A stretch of DNA of 64,000 bases, taken from the NCBI GenBank assembly GCA_029742005.1, contig GCA_029742005.1_4113.1. The stretch is one strand, 5' to 3'. Under the pieces are notes generated by a model that worked only from the letters and a program-made list of their open reading frames with translations, searched no databases and was not told the origin of the DNA. Positions 365 through 44,228 of the stretch are shown piece by piece (the stretch's first letter is position 1; the number at the start of each line of letters is the position of its first letter). Both the position numbers and the translations under genes were made by a program. Source of the stretch: a phage.

Positions 365-373
365 TAAAACAAA

Positions 374-3553: not shown

Positions 3554-3808
3554 ATGTTTGCATTGCGTAACAAAAACACTAAAGAAATATTATGTTTAGA
3601 TACCGTATGGGATTGTGCGGGATCAACTACAGTTCTTGAAGAAGGAACTGGATATTGCGTGTTTGTTGTACATGATAGGAATGAACTCGAATTATTACTT
3701 GCTGAGTTCAATGCTGGTGGTAATCCTAACAGTACTGAATACCCTGAGATTATCAATCCAGCACCACCAGGCTCTTATGAAATTCTACAACTGTGGGAGT
3801 TGAAGTAA
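3554..3808 (+). CDS. hypothetical protein
   Basis: RBS TAGGAGA; 84 aa. Confidence 0.55.
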   Translation: MFALRNKNTKEILCLDTVWDCAGSTTVLEEGTGYCVFVVHDRNELELLLAEFNAGGNPNSTEYPEIINPAPPGSYEILQLWELK

Positions 3809-5299: not shown

Positions 5300-5671
5300 A
5301 TGAATATAGATTTGAAAGGTGCAACCCGAACTGTCATACTCATTGGGGAATATGCTATCAAGATTCCAACCTTTAAAAGTTGGAAGCTATTCTTAACAGG
5401 GATGATAGCTAACCTCAATGAACGTTCTTGGATGCAGTACTCCAAGCGTAGTGATAGTGGTATCTGCCCTACGTTGTGGTCATCATGTACTGGACTAGTA
5501 ACTGTACAGAAACGTTGTAAGCCAGTACAACATAGGGGTTTATTTTGGGTGGAGTTGTGTGCTTTAGCATTGAATTCAGAGTTAAGTACTGACTTCTTCT
5601 ATTCAGATGCGAAGCCAGAAAACTTTGGGTATCTGGGTGGTAAGTTAGTTAAACTTGATTATGGAGATTAA
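5300..5671 (+). CDS. small protein with kinase-like motifs
   Basis: GATRTV..YAIKIP then DAKPENFG and KLDYGD, resembling Gly-loop/Lys/catalytic loop/DFG; only 123 aa. Confidence 0.4.
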   Translation: MNIDLKGATRTVILIGEYAIKIPTFKSWKLFLTGMIANLNERSWMQYSKRSDSGICPTLWSSCTGLVTVQKRCKPVQHRGLFWVELCALALNSELSTDFFYSDAKPENFGYLGGKLVKLDYGD

Positions 5672-5672
5672 T

Positions 5673-6095
5673 ATGTACGCACTGTATAATAAAGAAAAGA
5701 AACAATTTGCTAAGGTTGAAAAATCGATTGATACATTTGGCATGTTTAAGTACTGTATTGTGACGGACCCATATGCTAACTTGTATTACGTTCTTGATGA
5801 CGTATCAGTACTGCAACGATTGCTTGAACGTTCCAAAAGCCAATGCCAAGGTATCCATGATGGTTCAACTTATGAAACACCTGAGTGTTCCTATGGCTAT
5901 CTGGATGGGTATGAGATTGTGAAGTTGGGTGCATTGTTGATTAATGAGGAATTTATGAAACTATGTACATGTGATGATTGTGGTAAACAAATACCAGAAA
6001 GTGAAGTATATCGTAATGAAACTGCATTCGGTGATGATGGTGACTACTGCCAGGATTGTTTTTACGAGAACCATTATGATTTTGGCGATGATTAA
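5673..6095 (+). CDS. hypothetical protein with C-terminal Cys-rich (zinc-ribbon-like) region
   Basis: RBS GGAG; C-terminal CTCDDCGK..(21)..CQDC. Confidence 0.5.
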   Translation: MYALYNKEKKQFAKVEKSIDTFGMFKYCIVTDPYANLYYVLDDVSVLQRLLERSKSQCQGIHDGSTYETPECSYGYLDGYEIVKLGALLINEEFMKLCTCDDCGKQIPESEVYRNETAFGDDGDYCQDCFYENHYDFGDD

Positions 6096-6099
6096 AACA

Positions 6100-6127
6100 A
6101 AGGGTTGACTTCGGTCAGCCCTTTTTG
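6100..6127 (+). terminator. rho-independent terminator overlapping a promoter -35
   Basis: AGGGTTGACTTCGGTCAGCCCT hairpin + TTTTTG. Confidence 0.65.
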
Positions 6128-6134
6128 TTATAAT
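6105..6134 (+). promoter_or_regulatory. promoter TTGACT-18-TATAAT embedded in terminator
   Basis: -35 lies in hairpin stem; -10 TATAAT at 6129-6134. Confidence 0.5.
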
Positions 6135-6162
6135 CATTTCATCGAAACGAGAGGATGAATAC

Positions 6163-6678
6163 ATGACACGCATTAACTTAGTACACGTTAAAGAACTTGC
6201 TGACCAACATCTGATGGCTGAATATCGTGAACTCCCACGTGTATTTGGTGCTGTACAAAAACACGTTCAAGCACGTAAGCGTGTACGTGATTTCAAAATT
6301 AACAGTACTTACCTGTTAGGTTCAGGTCATGTAACATTCTTCTACAACAAGTTATTGTACTTACAGAAGCGTCATATTGATATTGTTAACGAATGTTTGC
6401 GTCGTGGTATGAAGATTCAAAACACTGAAGTAAACGACATTAGCGGATTCCCTGCTGAGTTTTGTAATGACTACGTACCATCGGAGTCAGAGATTAAAAT
6501 GTCTCGTGAGCGTTTGATTGAGAAGCTACAGATGAAGCCTACGTGGTATAAATTTACTGACGTTGAACGCCCACAGTATGTTAAAGATATGCAGGACGTA
6601 AGTAGTAATATAGAATCTAGTACTGATTTGTTCGACGAAATTGAAGAACAAATCAAAGATGAAATGAATAATTATTAA
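6163..6678 (+). CDS. denV: pyrimidine-dimer DNA glycosylase / endonuclease V
   Basis: N-terminal 130 aa closely match the T4 DenV sequence as recalled ([46 protein letters not shown]); acidic C-terminal extension. Confidence 0.88.
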
Positions 6679-6683
6679 AGAAA

Positions 6684-6710
6684 AGGGTTGACTTCGGTCA
6701 GCCCTTTTTG
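6684..6710 (+). terminator. rho-independent terminator overlapping a promoter -35
   Basis: GGGTTGACTTCGGTCAGCCC + TTTTTG. Confidence 0.65.
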
Positions 6711-6718
6711 CTATAATT
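6688..6718 (+). promoter_or_regulatory. promoter TTGACT-19-TATAAT embedded in terminator
   Basis: Same composite as at 6100; spacer is long (19). Confidence 0.4.
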
Positions 6719-6745
6719 ATTTCATCAACTGATGAGGATAACGAA

Positions 6746-7516
6746 ATGACCAGAGAAGCACGTAGCATTCAAATCCAGAAAAACTTCAACTCCATGATGG
6801 TTGCTCTTGAGTGTTTGCTCGATGATAGCAGTACTGTAAAAAGTATGGTTGTCAGCGGTGCACCTGGTGTTGGTAAGACTTACACCCTGTCACAACGCCT
6901 CCAGAAAGCTCATGACGCAGCAGAATGGAACGTAGCTACTATCAGTGGTAAGATGACTACTCTTGCTCTGTATGAAGTTCTGTACAAGAATCGTCACAGC
7001 ACTAACGTATTAGTACTGGATGATATGGACAGCATCTTTGATTCAGAAGACGGTATGAACCTGCTCAAAGCAGTACTGGACAGCGGTAAACGTACTGTGT
7101 CTTACATGACTAGCTCTAAGTACTTAACTACCAACGGTATCCCTAACAGCTTTGATTTTAACGGTCGTATCGTATTCATTACTAACAAAGATTTAGCACT
7201 GAATGCTAAAGCTAAAACCAAAATGTCTGCTCACTATGCTGCTCTTATGTCTCGCTCTGTGTATGTTGACTTACAGATCCAGACTAAAAGCGATATCATG
7301 ATTCACATTGAAAACGTAATGAACAAGACCAACATCCTGTCAACTAAAGGTGTTAATAGTAATGGTAGTAAAGCAATCCTGAATTGGATGCTGAAACATG
7401 AAGATGCACTTCGTGCCCCTTCACTGCGTATGCCTCTGTTGATTTCAGCAGTATACAACAACAACCCGTATGATTGGGAAGAGCAGTGCGAAAACTTGTT
7501 CCTTGAGAAAATTTAA
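6746..7516 (+). CDS. P-loop NTPase (AAA-like ATPase)
   Basis: Walker A GAPGVGKT and Walker B-like VLVLDDMD; RBS GAGGA. Confidence 0.6.
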   Translation: MTREARSIQIQKNFNSMMVALECLLDDSSTVKSMVVSGAPGVGKTYTLSQRLQKAHDAAEWNVATISGKMTTLALYEVLYKNRHSTNVLVLDDMDSIFDSEDGMNLLKAVLDSGKRTVSYMTSSKYLTTNGIPNSFDFNGRIVFITNKDLALNAKAKTKMSAHYAALMSRSVYVDLQIQTKSDIMIHIENVMNKTNILSTKGVNSNGSKAILNWMLKHEDALRAPSLRMPLLISAVYNNNPYDWEEQCENLFLEKI

Positions 7517-10023: not shown

Positions 10024-10065
10024 TAAAAAATCCAGTACTATTAAGTACTGGATGTATAAGGAGTT

Positions 10066-27655: not shown

Positions 27656-27726
27656 ATGAAAATCGTAATAACAGTACTGATATTAACAGAATGGTGTCAG
27701 TACTGATTTTAATCTAAAGCATTATG

Positions 27727-28060: not shown

Positions 28061-28816
28061 AAAATTTTATTTTGTTTTTTCCAATAGTTCCCCTACCGCG
28101 TGGGGATAGTTTCCCCGCAGTATCTGGAGTTAGATTTTTCTGAATCTGGAATCATTATCTTATAAACTGGGGGCAATGTCAACCGCCTGGACGGATATTT
28201 TTAAAAATTTTTTCAGTACTGAATTTTGGGCGTAACTATGCACCCGGTGGGCTATAGTCTTTCTCGACTTGATGGAACTATTATACAGTACTGAAAAAAT
28301 AAAGCAATACCCTGGAAGCAAAAAAGTTTTAATTAATTTGCTTGCCATCCTGGGCCGTACTATGGTACTATATTTCAGTACTGAGAAAGTGCGTTTACCT
28401 GCTAGGGTGCGGGAGTGTATCCTTTTTTTATATCTTGAATTTTGGGCGTAATTCCGCACCCTCTGGGGTTTCCGCTTTCTCGCGTCTATGTAGTAATTAT
28501 ACGCTTTTTCAGGATCAAGTCAATACCTAAAAACAAAATAATTGAAAATAATTTAACGCGTTTAAACGGCCCGTAACGCCCTGGAATGATTGGAATGGTG
28601 CAAATGTATAGCTTAGGTGTATTAATGCGTTAGAATGCGTCTGAGGCCGTTTTACGGGGTATGGGGATGATTTAGTGGATTGATTCAGTACTGAATGATA
28701 GTACTACTATATAGAAAGATAGTTCCCCTGGATGGTTGCAGTACTGAATGATAGTACTGAATAATAGTTCCCCTATATAGAAAGAAAACTATTTTAAAAG
28801 TATTTGTAGAAAGTAC

Positions 28817-36136: not shown

Positions 36137-36280
36137 ATGAATCCAACAGGTTTAAACTATAAAAGTTGTTCGGCGTTTACGAAAGCAAATAAAGCGAATG
36201 CACGTAAAGCGAAAGTACAGGAATACATCAAGCAAGGCATGACGCGAAAGGCGGCGATTCTAAAAGCTAAAAATAAATGA
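36137..36280 (+). CDS. small basic protein (47 aa)
   Basis: Starts right after previous stop; Lys/Ala-rich; terminator follows. Confidence 0.35.
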   Translation: MNPTGLNYKSCSAFTKANKANARKAKVQEYIKQGMTRKAAILKAKNK

Positions 36281-36285
36281 AAAAA

Positions 36286-36319
36286 GTGGTTGACTCCGGT
36301 CAGCCATTTTGCTATTATA
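36286..36319 (+). terminator. terminator-promoter composite (hairpin with TTGACT, then TATTAT)
   Basis: TGGTTGACTCCGGTCAGCCA hairpin; -35 36290-36295; -10 36314-36319. Confidence 0.55.
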
Positions 36320-36490
36320 TATTCATTGAGAGATAGCTCACTAGCCCACAGGGTGCATAAGTGTATCTATTATATAAGTATTGAGTACTGAAAACTATTT
36401 TTAAAAAGTACTTGCAAACTATCTCAATTGGCGTATAATGTTTTACATCGCAAGGGGAAACGGTTTCCCCTGGTAATAAGGAAACGAATC

Positions 36491-39278: not shown

Positions 39279-39292
39279 AAAGAATTGAAAAA

Positions 39293-39325
39293 GGGATTGA
39301 CTCCGGTCAGTCCCTTTGCTATTAT
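39293..39325 (+). terminator. terminator-promoter composite
   Basis: GGGATTGACTCCGGTCAGTCCC hairpin; TTGACT-17-TATTAT. Confidence 0.6.
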
Positions 39326-39416
39326 ATATTCATTGAAACAATCTAGCCCACAGGGTGCATAAATGTATCTATTGTTTGCTGGTGGCTAGTACTATCAAGT
39401 ACTGAAAACTATTTTT

Positions 39417-39601
39417 AAAAAGTACTTGCAAAGTATCACGATAAGCGTATAATGTTTTACATCAGGACGGGGAACGAAACAAGTAACTCCCCGTTAAGTA
39501 GTCCAGGAGTAAGACATACGAAAACCTCCCCTGATAAAATAGTTTGACAATAGAAATTAAACGAGTATAATACTTACATCAACCACAAAGAGGAATACAA
39601 A
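39417..39601 (+). repeat. dual-promoter repeat unit, copy 2
   Basis: Near-identical to 29946-30131. Confidence 0.6.
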
Positions 39602-42582: not shown

Positions 42583-42596
42583 AAAAGATTAAAAAA

Positions 42597-42629
42597 GGGA
42601 TTGACTCCAGTCAGTCCCTTTGCTATTAT
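42597..42629 (+). terminator. terminator-promoter composite
   Basis: GGGATTGACTCCAGTCAGTCCC hairpin; TTGACT-17-TATTAT. Confidence 0.6.
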
Positions 42630-42803
42630 ATATTCATTGAGAGATAACTCACTGACCCATAGGGTGCGGAAGTGTATCTATTATATAAGTATTCAGTACT
42701 GAAAACTATTTGATAAAAAGTACTTGCAAACTATCTCAAAGAGCGTATAATGTTTTATATCGAGAGGGGGAAATGGTTTCCCCTCAAGTCCAGGAGATAC
42801 ACC

Positions 42804-43983: not shown

Positions 43984-44000
43984 CAAAAAAGAATAAAAAA

Positions 44001-44033
44001 GGGATTGACTCCGGTCAGTCCCTTTGCTATTAT
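44001..44033 (+). terminator. terminator-promoter composite
   Basis: GGGATTGACTCCGGTCAGTCCC hairpin; TTGACT-17-TATTAT. Confidence 0.6.
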
Positions 44034-44228
44034 ATACGCATAGACAAAAACTAGCCCACTGGGTGCATAAGTGTATCCAAAATATATAGTTAATAACGGT
44101 GAGTAACTATCTGCTGGTGGAGTGAAAACTATTAATAAAAAAAGTATTGACAAAGTATATCAGTACTGCGATAATGTATCTCGTAGGGCGGCAATGGTGC
44201 GACGGCCCACAAAGTTAGGAGATTCAAA

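Follow-up and report, generated by a model that had tools for sequence, protein, structure and literature searches.

A hairpin enclosing a -35 hexamer recurs as a putative terminator-promoter cassette in an Asteriusvirus jumbo phage

Can one short intergenic sequence end the transcript of one phage gene and start that of the next? The question is raised by positions 6100-6134 of a 64,000-nucleotide stretch of phage DNA (NCBI GenBank assembly GCA_029742005.1, contig GCA_029742005.1_4113.1; the whole stretch is called the window here), where a hairpin followed by a run of T carries the hexamer TTGACT in its 5' arm and leads into TATAAT. Eight such composites lie in the window. The window is about 35% G+C and is 90-98% identical, in mosaic blocks, to the Asteriusvirus jumbo coliphages, which are RaK2-like myoviruses with genomes of 350-385 kb: fEgEco12, SP27, phAPEC6, PBECO4, 121Q, G17, and slurp01. 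The composites are probably dual-signal cassettes of this Asteriusvirus phage, the counterpart of the promoter-early stem-loops (PeSLs) of T4-like phages, and probably also act as recombination substrates. The observation is real and non-random, and comparison with related phages makes the dual reading a well supported one. That the hairpins terminate, that E-sigma70 initiates at them, and that the homology breakpoints described below arose by recombination are inferences.

Anatomy of the eight composites

The hairpin core TTGACTYCGGTCA was found as an exact copy at 377, 1463, 6105, 6688, 36290, 39297, and 44005, and an eighth copy, with one mismatch (a CCAG loop), was found at 42601; all were on the + strand. 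No exact copies are expected by chance. When up to two mismatches were allowed, there were 10 matches; shuffles averaged 2.0, and none gave as many as 10. The first-pass annotation of this DNA had listed eight hairpin sites, and every one of them was present where it had been placed, on the + strand. Its consensus was somewhat inaccurate, with the loop given as TCGG; the loop is TTCG or TCCG, closed by a C-G pair. Group A (374, 1459, 6100, 6684) reads (A)AAGG(G)-TTGAC-TTCG-GTCAG-CC(C)-T5-8 and group B (36286, 39293, 42597, 44001) reads AAAGGGA-TTGAC-TCCG-GTCAG-TCCC-TTT. Group B varies in its outer stem at 36286 (GTGG/CCAT), in its loop at 42597 (TCCA), and in its T-run (T3-4). The hairpins and candidate promoters are as follows, with the open reading frames (ORFs) and Shine-Dalgarno (SD) sequences next to them.

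371-396, + strand: composite 1 hairpin (group A), AAAAGGTTGACTTCGGTCAGCCTTTT, 11 bp, UUCG loop, T8, -14.3 kcal/mol
377-382, + strand: composite 1 TTGACT, followed by TGTAAATA at 400-407; next gene from 437
1456-1483, + strand: composite 2 hairpin (group A), 12 bp, UUCG loop, T6, -15.7 kcal/mol; begins 4 nt past the stop of ORF 1032-1451
1463-1492, + strand: composite 2 promoter, -35 TTGACT 1463-1468, 18-bp spacer, TG 1484-1485, -10 TATGAT 1487-1492; SD at about 1509, ATG 1521
6099-6124, + strand: composite 3 hairpin (group A), AAAGGGTTGACTTCGGTCAGCCCTTT, 11 bp, UUCG loop, T5; begins 3 nt past the stop of ORF 5655-6095
6105-6134, + strand: composite 3 promoter, -35 TTGACT 6105-6110, 18-bp spacer, TG 6126-6127, -10 TATAAT 6129-6134
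6680-6709, + strand: composite 4 hairpin (group A), 13 bp, UUCG loop, T5, -18.8 kcal/mol; begins 1 nt past the stop of the denV-type gene (ORF end 6678)
6688-6717, + strand: composite 4 promoter, -35 TTGACT 6688-6693, 18-bp spacer, TGc, -10 TATAAT 6712-6717; predicted +1 near 6724, ATG 6746
36283-36318, + strand: composite 5 (group B), hairpin 36283-36310, 12 bp, UCCG loop, outer stem GTGG/CCAT, T4, -16.9 kcal/mol; promoter -35 36290-36295, 17-bp spacer, TGc, -10 TATTAT 36313-36318
39290-39325, + strand: composite 6 (group B), hairpin 39290-39317, 12 bp, UCCG loop, TTT only, -19.5 kcal/mol; promoter -35 39297-39302, -10 TATTAT 39320-39325
42594-42629, + strand: composite 7 (group B), hairpin 42594-42621, UCCA loop, -17.6 kcal/mol; promoter -35 42601-42606, -10 TATTAT 42624-42629
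43998-44033, + strand: composite 8 (group B), hairpin 43998-44025, -19.5 kcal/mol; promoter -35 44005-44010, -10 TATTAT 44028-44033

The hairpins look like intrinsic terminators, since each is a GC-rich hairpin with a U-tract, co-oriented with the upstream gene. Their stems are 11-13 bp long when the A·U extension is counted and are capped by a C(UNCG)G tetraloop. RNA folding of the eight gave -14.3 to -19.5 kcal/mol, with z scores of -4.4 to -6.3 against shuffles. The antisense strand folded about 6 kcal/mol more weakly because the conserved U·G pair turns into a C·A mismatch; for composite 3, the values were -17.6 kcal/mol (z -6.2) for the sense strand and only -12.0 for the antisense strand. 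A consensus terminator scan placed 371-396 and 6099-6124 among its best sites, and a separate scan for stems placed all eight hairpins among the longest on the + strand. In group A, the hairpin begins 1-4 nt past the upstream stop codon and ends in the T-run, and an SD and ATG follow about 25 nt beyond the -10. As a terminator, the U-tract of group B is borderline (T3-4, then GCTATTAT), and there a leader of 170-275 nt precedes the SD.

The first-pass annotation had counted TATAAT or TATTAT behind the -35 at six of the eight sites, correctly (TATAAT at 6129 and 6712; TATTAT at 36313, 39320, 42624, and 44028), but had overlooked a seventh -10, TATGAT at 1487, that also fits. The gap of 17-19 nt that it gave between the two boxes narrows on measurement to a spacer of 17-18 bp in seven of the eight sites. 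The same number have a TG at -15/-14, the mark of an extended -10, which had gone unmentioned. Spacer, TGn, and a -10 matching the consensus in at least 5 of 6 positions were thus present together in 7/8 copies. The candidate promoter of composite 3 matches 11 of 12 consensus positions with its TG present; its predicted +1 is the A at 6141, in a C-A-T context, and the denV-type gene follows with an SD at 6151 and an ATG at 6163.

Conservation, breakpoints, and rival readings

We collected 44 distinct copies from the window, its Asteriusvirus relatives, and IMG/VR contigs of other genera. TTGAC was invariant and was always in the 5' arm, never in the 3' arm. Its 3'-arm partners varied only to wobbles (U·G in 41 copies vs U-A in 3; U-A in 39 vs U·G in 5; G-C in 42 vs G·U in 2). 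The outer stem covaried, with two-sided changes at columns 9-30, 10-29, and 12-27 (AU/GC/GU, GC/AU/UA, and GC/AU). The loops varied with the stem kept (UUCG, UCCG, UUAG, GAAA, GAGA, and others), with UNCG and GNRA types predominating. Because the wobbles pair only in sense RNA, the outer stem covaries, the loop is free, and the element is placed between stop codon and T-run, this pattern argues for a hairpin that acts at the RNA level, as a terminator or 3'-end stabiliser, and not as the operator of a dimeric protein.

Among 87 distinct hairpin-bearing copies, 79 had an A 7 nt past the -10, preceded by C or T and followed by T, although positions 1-5 past the -10 were variable; promoter-like sites without the hairpin did not show this Y-A-T at the start-site distance. 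With TG and TAnnnT in all but composite 1 and a putative start purine within 6-8 nt downstream, the composites look like extended -10 sigma-70 promoters. The exact 20-mer GGGTTGACTTCGGTCAGCCC had 47 occurrences across 34 IMG/VR stretches and nine across 596 Gb of bacterial genome sequence, where about 1 was expected. TGn-TAnnnT at 17-18 bp followed the 20-mer hairpin in 35 of 43 distinct viral copies and in none of the nine bacterial copies, which had only the T-run, suggesting that the hairpin can be a plain terminator and that the -10 is a phage-specific addition. The bacterial copies were from Vibrio, Bdellovibrio, and metagenome-assembled genomes (MAGs) of Bacteroidetes and Clostridia, and in some cases the contig may be phage DNA carried in a MAG. 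In public records, the two readings occur apart: the element is annotated as an ARNold terminator in G17 and GAP32, and in the Yersinia phage fHe-Yen9-03 its TTGACT and downstream hexamer are annotated as -35/-10 signals. Both labels appear to be due. Together, the sequence and comparative evidence support the core of the earlier proposal: one element, put here at about 35-55 bp, would end the upstream transcript as an intrinsic-terminator-like hairpin and start the downstream one as a sigma-70-type promoter with its -35 in the 5' stem arm.

Homology to related phages breaks at several of these sites, a coincidence that the first-pass annotation did not mention. The genes beside the composites with a recognisable product are as follows.

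1521-2162, + strand: protein kinase (label from the annotation of relatives), downstream of composite 2
6163-6678, + strand: denV-type pyrimidine dimer glycosylase, bracketed by composites 3 and 4
6746-7516, + strand: P-loop/AAA-like protein of 256 aa, downstream of composite 4

Homology blocks shared with fEgEco12, UE-S1, Ecwhy_1, Turkey3, and phAPEC6 start at 6086-6099 or 6665-6681 or end at 6700; the last is where homology to UE-S1 and Ecwhy_1 stops, within the composite 4 hairpin. Between denV and the 256-aa gene, the window has the composite alone and the relatives have 0-3 extra genes (two in UE-S1, three in Ecwhy_1, three in phAPEC6), and Turkey3 has a different gene set before the 256-aa gene, without denV. 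The junctions of these variable cassettes are marked by composites or half composites. After denV in UE-S1 and Ecwhy_1, the half composite consists of the 5' arm, the loop, and GTCA, beyond which the DNA is unrelated; the -35 of the Ecwhy_1 copy has decayed to TTAAC. Elsewhere, homology to four Salmonella phages starts at window positions 369-371 (composite 1), and homology to several relatives starts at 36268 and 39277, 15-18 nt before composites 5 and 6. Block ends lay within 45 nt of a composite in 9 of 102 cases compared with about 2 expected, though the events are not independent. The stronger statement that breakpoints always fall at the 35-bp composite was rejected, as it fails for group B, where most block ends lie elsewhere.

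Just upstream of composite 3, the 3' end of ORF 5655-6095 (5945-6095) has no counterpart in the five relatives compared, whose homology stops at 5939-5947. In fEgEco12, the equivalent place holds a different gene end and an HNH endonuclease gene.

The eight composites sit among mostly ORFan genes on a + strand that, at 1-10 kb and 28-64 kb, is densely packed with small genes, mostly of unknown function; no related record covers at least 80% of the window from 30 to 54 kb. The proteins encoded next to the composites have no similarity to one another. Tandem gene duplication was therefore ruled out as the source of the repeats.

A dual-signal cassette could work as follows. The RNA of the upstream gene, A3-4 G2-3 UUGAC-UNCG-GUCAG C2-3 U3-8, would fold into a hairpin of 11-13 bp with an extra-stable tetraloop and a U-tract, and this would serve as an intrinsic terminator and as a protector of the upstream 3' end. 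The terminator looks strong in group A (5-8 U) and leakier in group B (UUU, then GCUAUUAU). As duplex DNA, the same bases would form a near-consensus host sigma-70 promoter: the A-tract stands at the position of an UP element, the 5' stem arm supplies the -35 TTGACT, the 3' arm and T-run fill the 17-18 bp spacer, and TGn with TATAAT or TATTAT makes an extended -10. Transcription would likely start at the A of the Y-A-T context, 7 nt past the -10. Each small early gene or gene group would in this way be insulated from its upstream neighbour and freshly driven. The cassettes may also be substrates for homologous recombination, with genes gained, lost, and swapped there, because many intergenic sites share almost the same 35-60 bp (group A) or about 215 bp (group B).

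Several points weigh against this account. Site 374 has no sigma-70 -10 and carries TGTAAATA in its place. Between 30 and 48 kb, most breakpoints are off the 35-bp composite, often at the 3' end of the leader of about 215 bp to which group B belongs. Across the 44 distinct copies, 96% of cells pair, but the inner five pairs were chosen by folding and pair in 100% of copies by construction, and therefore only the direction of their variation is informative; many copies are also kin by descent, so that their counts are not independent events. With only 3-4 U beside the stem, termination by group B may be weak. A literature search for RaK2-like phages returned no transcript 5'- or 3'-end data. 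Finally, RaK2-like phages encode their own RpoD-like sigma factor (PMC5259590), and host sigma-70 as the reader of the promoter is therefore only presumed.

One alternative is that the element is only a terminator, with TTGAC as mere stem sequence, the TATAAT-like hexamers as AT-rich background, and no transcription starts. The missing -10 at site 374 would fit, as would the nine bacterial contigs with the same 20-mer and a T-run alone and the decision of the G17 and GAP32 annotators to call the elements just terminators. This explanation is nevertheless improbable, given that TTGAC stays invariant and in the 5' arm alone while its pairing partners vary, that TGn-TAnnnT follows at the right distance in 35/43 viral and 0/9 bacterial copies, and that Y-A-T is conserved at the start distance with an SD and ATG downstream. 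The reverse possibility, a promoter whose inverted repeat is either incidental or the operator of a dimeric phage regulator that shuts early promoters, seems only slightly probable. The palindrome TGAC-N4-GTCA does overlap the -35, the classical position of a repressor operator, and the group B U-tract is poor; yet the conserved U·G and the 3'-arm wobbles pair only in the sense RNA and are mismatches on DNA or antisense RNA, the outer stem covaries under freely varying, mostly UNCG or GNRA loops, and the A-run and T-run flanks and the start 1-4 nt past the stop codon in group A are those of a terminator. On these grounds (G·U wobbles that pair in the sense strand alone, covariation of the outer stem, and unconstrained loops), the protein-operator reading of the palindrome was ruled out. 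A selfish mobile repeat, MITE-like (miniature inverted-repeat transposable element) or homing-associated and without a regulatory role, would account for many copies at indel junctions in unrelated phage families and for the HNH endonuclease gene that adjoins the element in fEgEco12. It is hardly credible, since there are no target-site duplications and, the hairpin apart, no terminal inverted repeats, all copies point the same way as their flanking genes and lie exactly between stop codon and SD, and the base-by-base constraints fit promoter and terminator positions.

The remaining alternative ties the two signals together. It had been suggested that the hairpin, in forming, competes with -35 recognition for one sequence, but this was mis-stated. 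Sigma region 4 recognises the -35 in duplex DNA, and the terminator hairpin forms in the nascent RNA of the upstream transcript; these are different molecules and do not compete, barring cruciform extrusion, which is marginal for arms of 11-13 bp (DNA hairpin about -9.7 kcal/mol). A coupling of termination to re-initiation is conceivable by another route, in which a polymerase that ends in the spacer is handed to the overlapping promoter, linking downstream to upstream transcription. The RNA would be released at about -20 to -13 of the promoter, and E. coli RNA polymerase is documented to stay on the DNA after intrinsic termination, slide, and re-initiate nearby (PMC6978380; PMC10372574). We consider it improbable that the overlap exists chiefly for such a hand-over. 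The sequence does not require it, as compactness and shared origin explain the overlap equally well; sigma must rebind; the competition between an RNA hairpin and a DNA -35 is not physically direct; and PeSL stem-loops lie at five positions relative to their promoters (PMC2839356), which speaks against a mechanism that needs exact overlap. The dual-signal cassette remains the preferred reading.

If both activities are real, the cassettes would explain how the hundreds of tiny early genes of a 350-kb phage are separately insulated and strongly driven by host polymerase, as well as the mosaicism of the early region between isolates. The 55-bp unit could also be a ready-made insulator-plus-promoter part for engineering.

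Known systems and spread across phage families

Various studies have described PeSLs in the T4-like phages RB49/phi1, PST/T4, and nt-1/KVP40 (Arbiol et al. 2010, PMC2839356; Comeau et al. 2014, PMC4122927). PeSLs are conserved composite promoter-terminator motifs in which the stem-loop overlaps the -35 or the -10 or lies between, upstream, or downstream of the boxes. Clusters of them occupy hyperplastic regions, where they border ORFans, fall at the same places as indels, and leave "half" elements (PMC2839356; PMC4122927). By experiment, those of RB49/phi1 are strong promoters and effective terminators, and they form mini-circles (PMC2839356).

The composites resemble PeSLs in being repeated intergenic elements with a stop codon, an AT-rich tract, sigma-70-like -35 and -10 boxes, a stable stem-loop, and an SD and start; in having the stem-loop over the -35, which is one of the five PeSL subclasses; and in lying among small ORFan genes at insertion, deletion, and replacement junctions with degraded halves. 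The stem consensus of nt-1 PeSLs, A3-4G3-loop-C3T3-4, matches the outer stem of the window composites. Taken property by property, -35 and -10 boxes about 17 bp apart were found in 7/8 sites, with site 374 the exception; the stem-loop is stable and within or beside the promoter; the layout of AT tract, stop codon, SD, and start is complete in group A and partial in group B; copy number and location in a hyperplastic region agree; and coincidence with indels, half elements included, was seen, more weakly for group B. The composites have every sequence-level property of PeSLs, a membership that the first-pass annotation did not name. They differ in their RaK2-like jumbo phage host, outside the Straboviridae; residence in a T4-like genome, however, concerns the setting of discovery and not the element itself. 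They also differ in having one overlap geometry and one dominant hairpin (TTGAC 5' arm, UNCG loop, fixed U·G), an extended TGn -10, and, in group B, a place within a longer two-promoter leader repeat. A literature search on Asteriusvirus, RaK2, GAP32, and CBB found no PeSLs or promoter-terminator composites, only separate predictions, and the CBB paper lists RpoD-like promoters and terminators apart. The PeSL concept would thus be extended from T4-like to RaK2-like jumbo phages. The kind of element is already known and is unsurprising to a specialist in phage transcription.

Single parts of the composite have other counterparts. C(UUCG)G tetraloop hairpins were reportedly found in T4 intercistronic regions by Tuerk et al. 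in 1988. Rho-independent UUCG terminators share with the composites the GC-rich stem, the C-G-closed UNCG loop, the U-tract, and the position just past a stop codon, but in the composites the stem encodes a -35 and the U-tract lies in a promoter spacer, and that of group B is short and interrupted. The extended -10 promoters of lytic coliphages share TTGACT, the 17-18 bp spacer, TGnTATAAT, the upstream A-tract, and a purine start 7 nt past the -10; in the composites, unlike these promoters, the spacer and -35 are self-complementary with the upstream flank, and sigma-70 recognition is presumed. The denV cassette (6100-6709) is similar to the lambdoid morons, which are genes with their own promoter and terminator: each is a single-gene unit with its own signals that comes and goes between relatives. 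The signals of morons, however, do not form conserved repeats, and mobility is not attributed to them, whereas the denV cassette has the same signal on both flanks and breakpoints inside it.

A stretch of 30-35 nt that is almost the same, U·G wobble included, was found in Vibrio phage ValKK3 (after rIIB; KVP40-like), Aeromonas phage AS-zj, Cronobacter phage CR3 (a Certrevirus), and Brochothrix phage A9, which has a Gram-positive host. A near-identical composite is thus present in the Straboviridae, Vequintavirinae, and Herelleviridae, and several phage families share, nearly to the base, one solution in which a UNCG-capped terminator stem encloses the -35. The similarity of some copies runs into a CATCGAAACGA leader, and in CR3 and ValKK3 it extends to a GAAACGAAAC leader (CATCGAAACGAAAC in CR3). 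If the -35 is to lie in the 5' arm of a stem of 8 bp or more that has a 4-nt loop, just 6-7 nt remain between the stem and the -10 to hold the T-run and TGn. With so tight a geometry, convergence is possible, and horizontal spread is the alternative. Another, rather unlikely, explanation is that the cassette (A-tract, GGGTTGAC-UUCG-GTCAGCCC, T-run, TGnTATWAT, and often the CATCGAAACGA leader) is an adaptor that moves between families and hands polymerase over directly. If so, any gene bracketed by it could recombine into any genome that carries the cassette and be expressed at once.

Group B leaders and other repeats

The group B composite proved to be the first 45 bp or so of a repeated leader of about 215 bp that contains a second promoter, which the first-pass annotation had not described. 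The features of these leaders are as follows.

36319-36490, + strand: conserved non-coding leader after composite 5; ATG 36491
39326-39601, 42630-42800, and 44034-44228, + strand: equivalent leaders
36343-36357, + strand: motif AGCCCACAGGGTGCA in the leader after composite 5
36412-36417 and 36434-36439, + strand: second promoter of the leader after composite 5, TTGCAA and TATAAT with a 16-bp spacer, then the GGGGAAAcGGTTTCCCC hairpin and SD

The order within the repeat is RNCCCA-NN-GGGTGC, AAAAAGTAC-TTGCAA, a 16-bp spacer, TATAAT, a GGGGAAA...TTCCCC hairpin, and an SD. The repeat is present at 8-22 places per Asteriusvirus genome, and a group A-like composite at 4-9 places per related genome; in vB_Ec-M-J, the annotated direct terminal repeat contains it. 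Neither a tRNA scan nor an Rfam scan of the whole window gave a match, and the conserved sequence past the group B composites is therefore not a known RNA gene.

The second promoter is part of a cassette of its own, with at least 17 copies on the + strand between 28808 and 44575 (for example, 36403-36439, 39417-39453, and 42715-42751). It consists of AAAAAGTACTTGCAAA, a 16-bp spacer, TATAAT, gttttacatc, a GGGGAAAnGGTTCCCC-type hairpin in the 5' untranslated region, an SD, and an ATG.

RNCCCA-NN-GGGTGC was found at 36343-36357, 39345-39359, 42654-42668, and 44053-44067, and on the minus strand at 28253, 28469, and 31791. It lies about 25 or 31 nt past the -10 in the four group B composites and farther downstream after some other strong promoters. 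The motif is invariant and is shared by GAP32 and by jumbo-phage contigs of IMG/VR. From 23 copies of the group B leader, RNAalifold predicted nothing beyond an invariant 4-bp CCC/GGG hairpin without covariation, and we propose no structured RNA there. A boxB/nut-like or protein-binding role for the motif would be speculation.

A different repeat, the palindrome AGTACT (often CAGTACTG), occurs 269 times in the window compared with about 22 expected from base composition, and AGTACTG occurs 249 times compared with about 8 in shuffles. No hexamer of the window is commoner than AGTACT, which occurs inside genes as well as between them (for example, 3730-3737, 27672-27705, and 36384-36390). A 7-17-fold excess was also seen in loci of other RaK2-like genera (fHe-Yen9-03, GAP32, CBB, RaK2, and Serratia BF), and it was absent from unrelated phages with the same hairpin. 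The literature search found no mention of it. Phages seldom show such an excess of a palindrome, and it may deserve more interest than the composites themselves.

On the minus strand, another family of hairpins with promoters lies between tandem RCC1-repeat genes. It reads (A)GCCAGTAC, loop, GTACTGGC, and T-run, and continues with TGTA(TT)AAATA..TATAAT..AGGAGG.

10053-10030, 11198-11176, 12439-12417, 13215-13189, 14475-14451, 16803-16770, 18003-17976, and 20429-20410, - strand: hairpins of this family

After composite 1, at 397-408, TTTTGTAAATAC resembles the late-type TAAATA motif behind these minus-strand hairpins. One of the hairpins has its base at 10053, where homology to three relatives stops.

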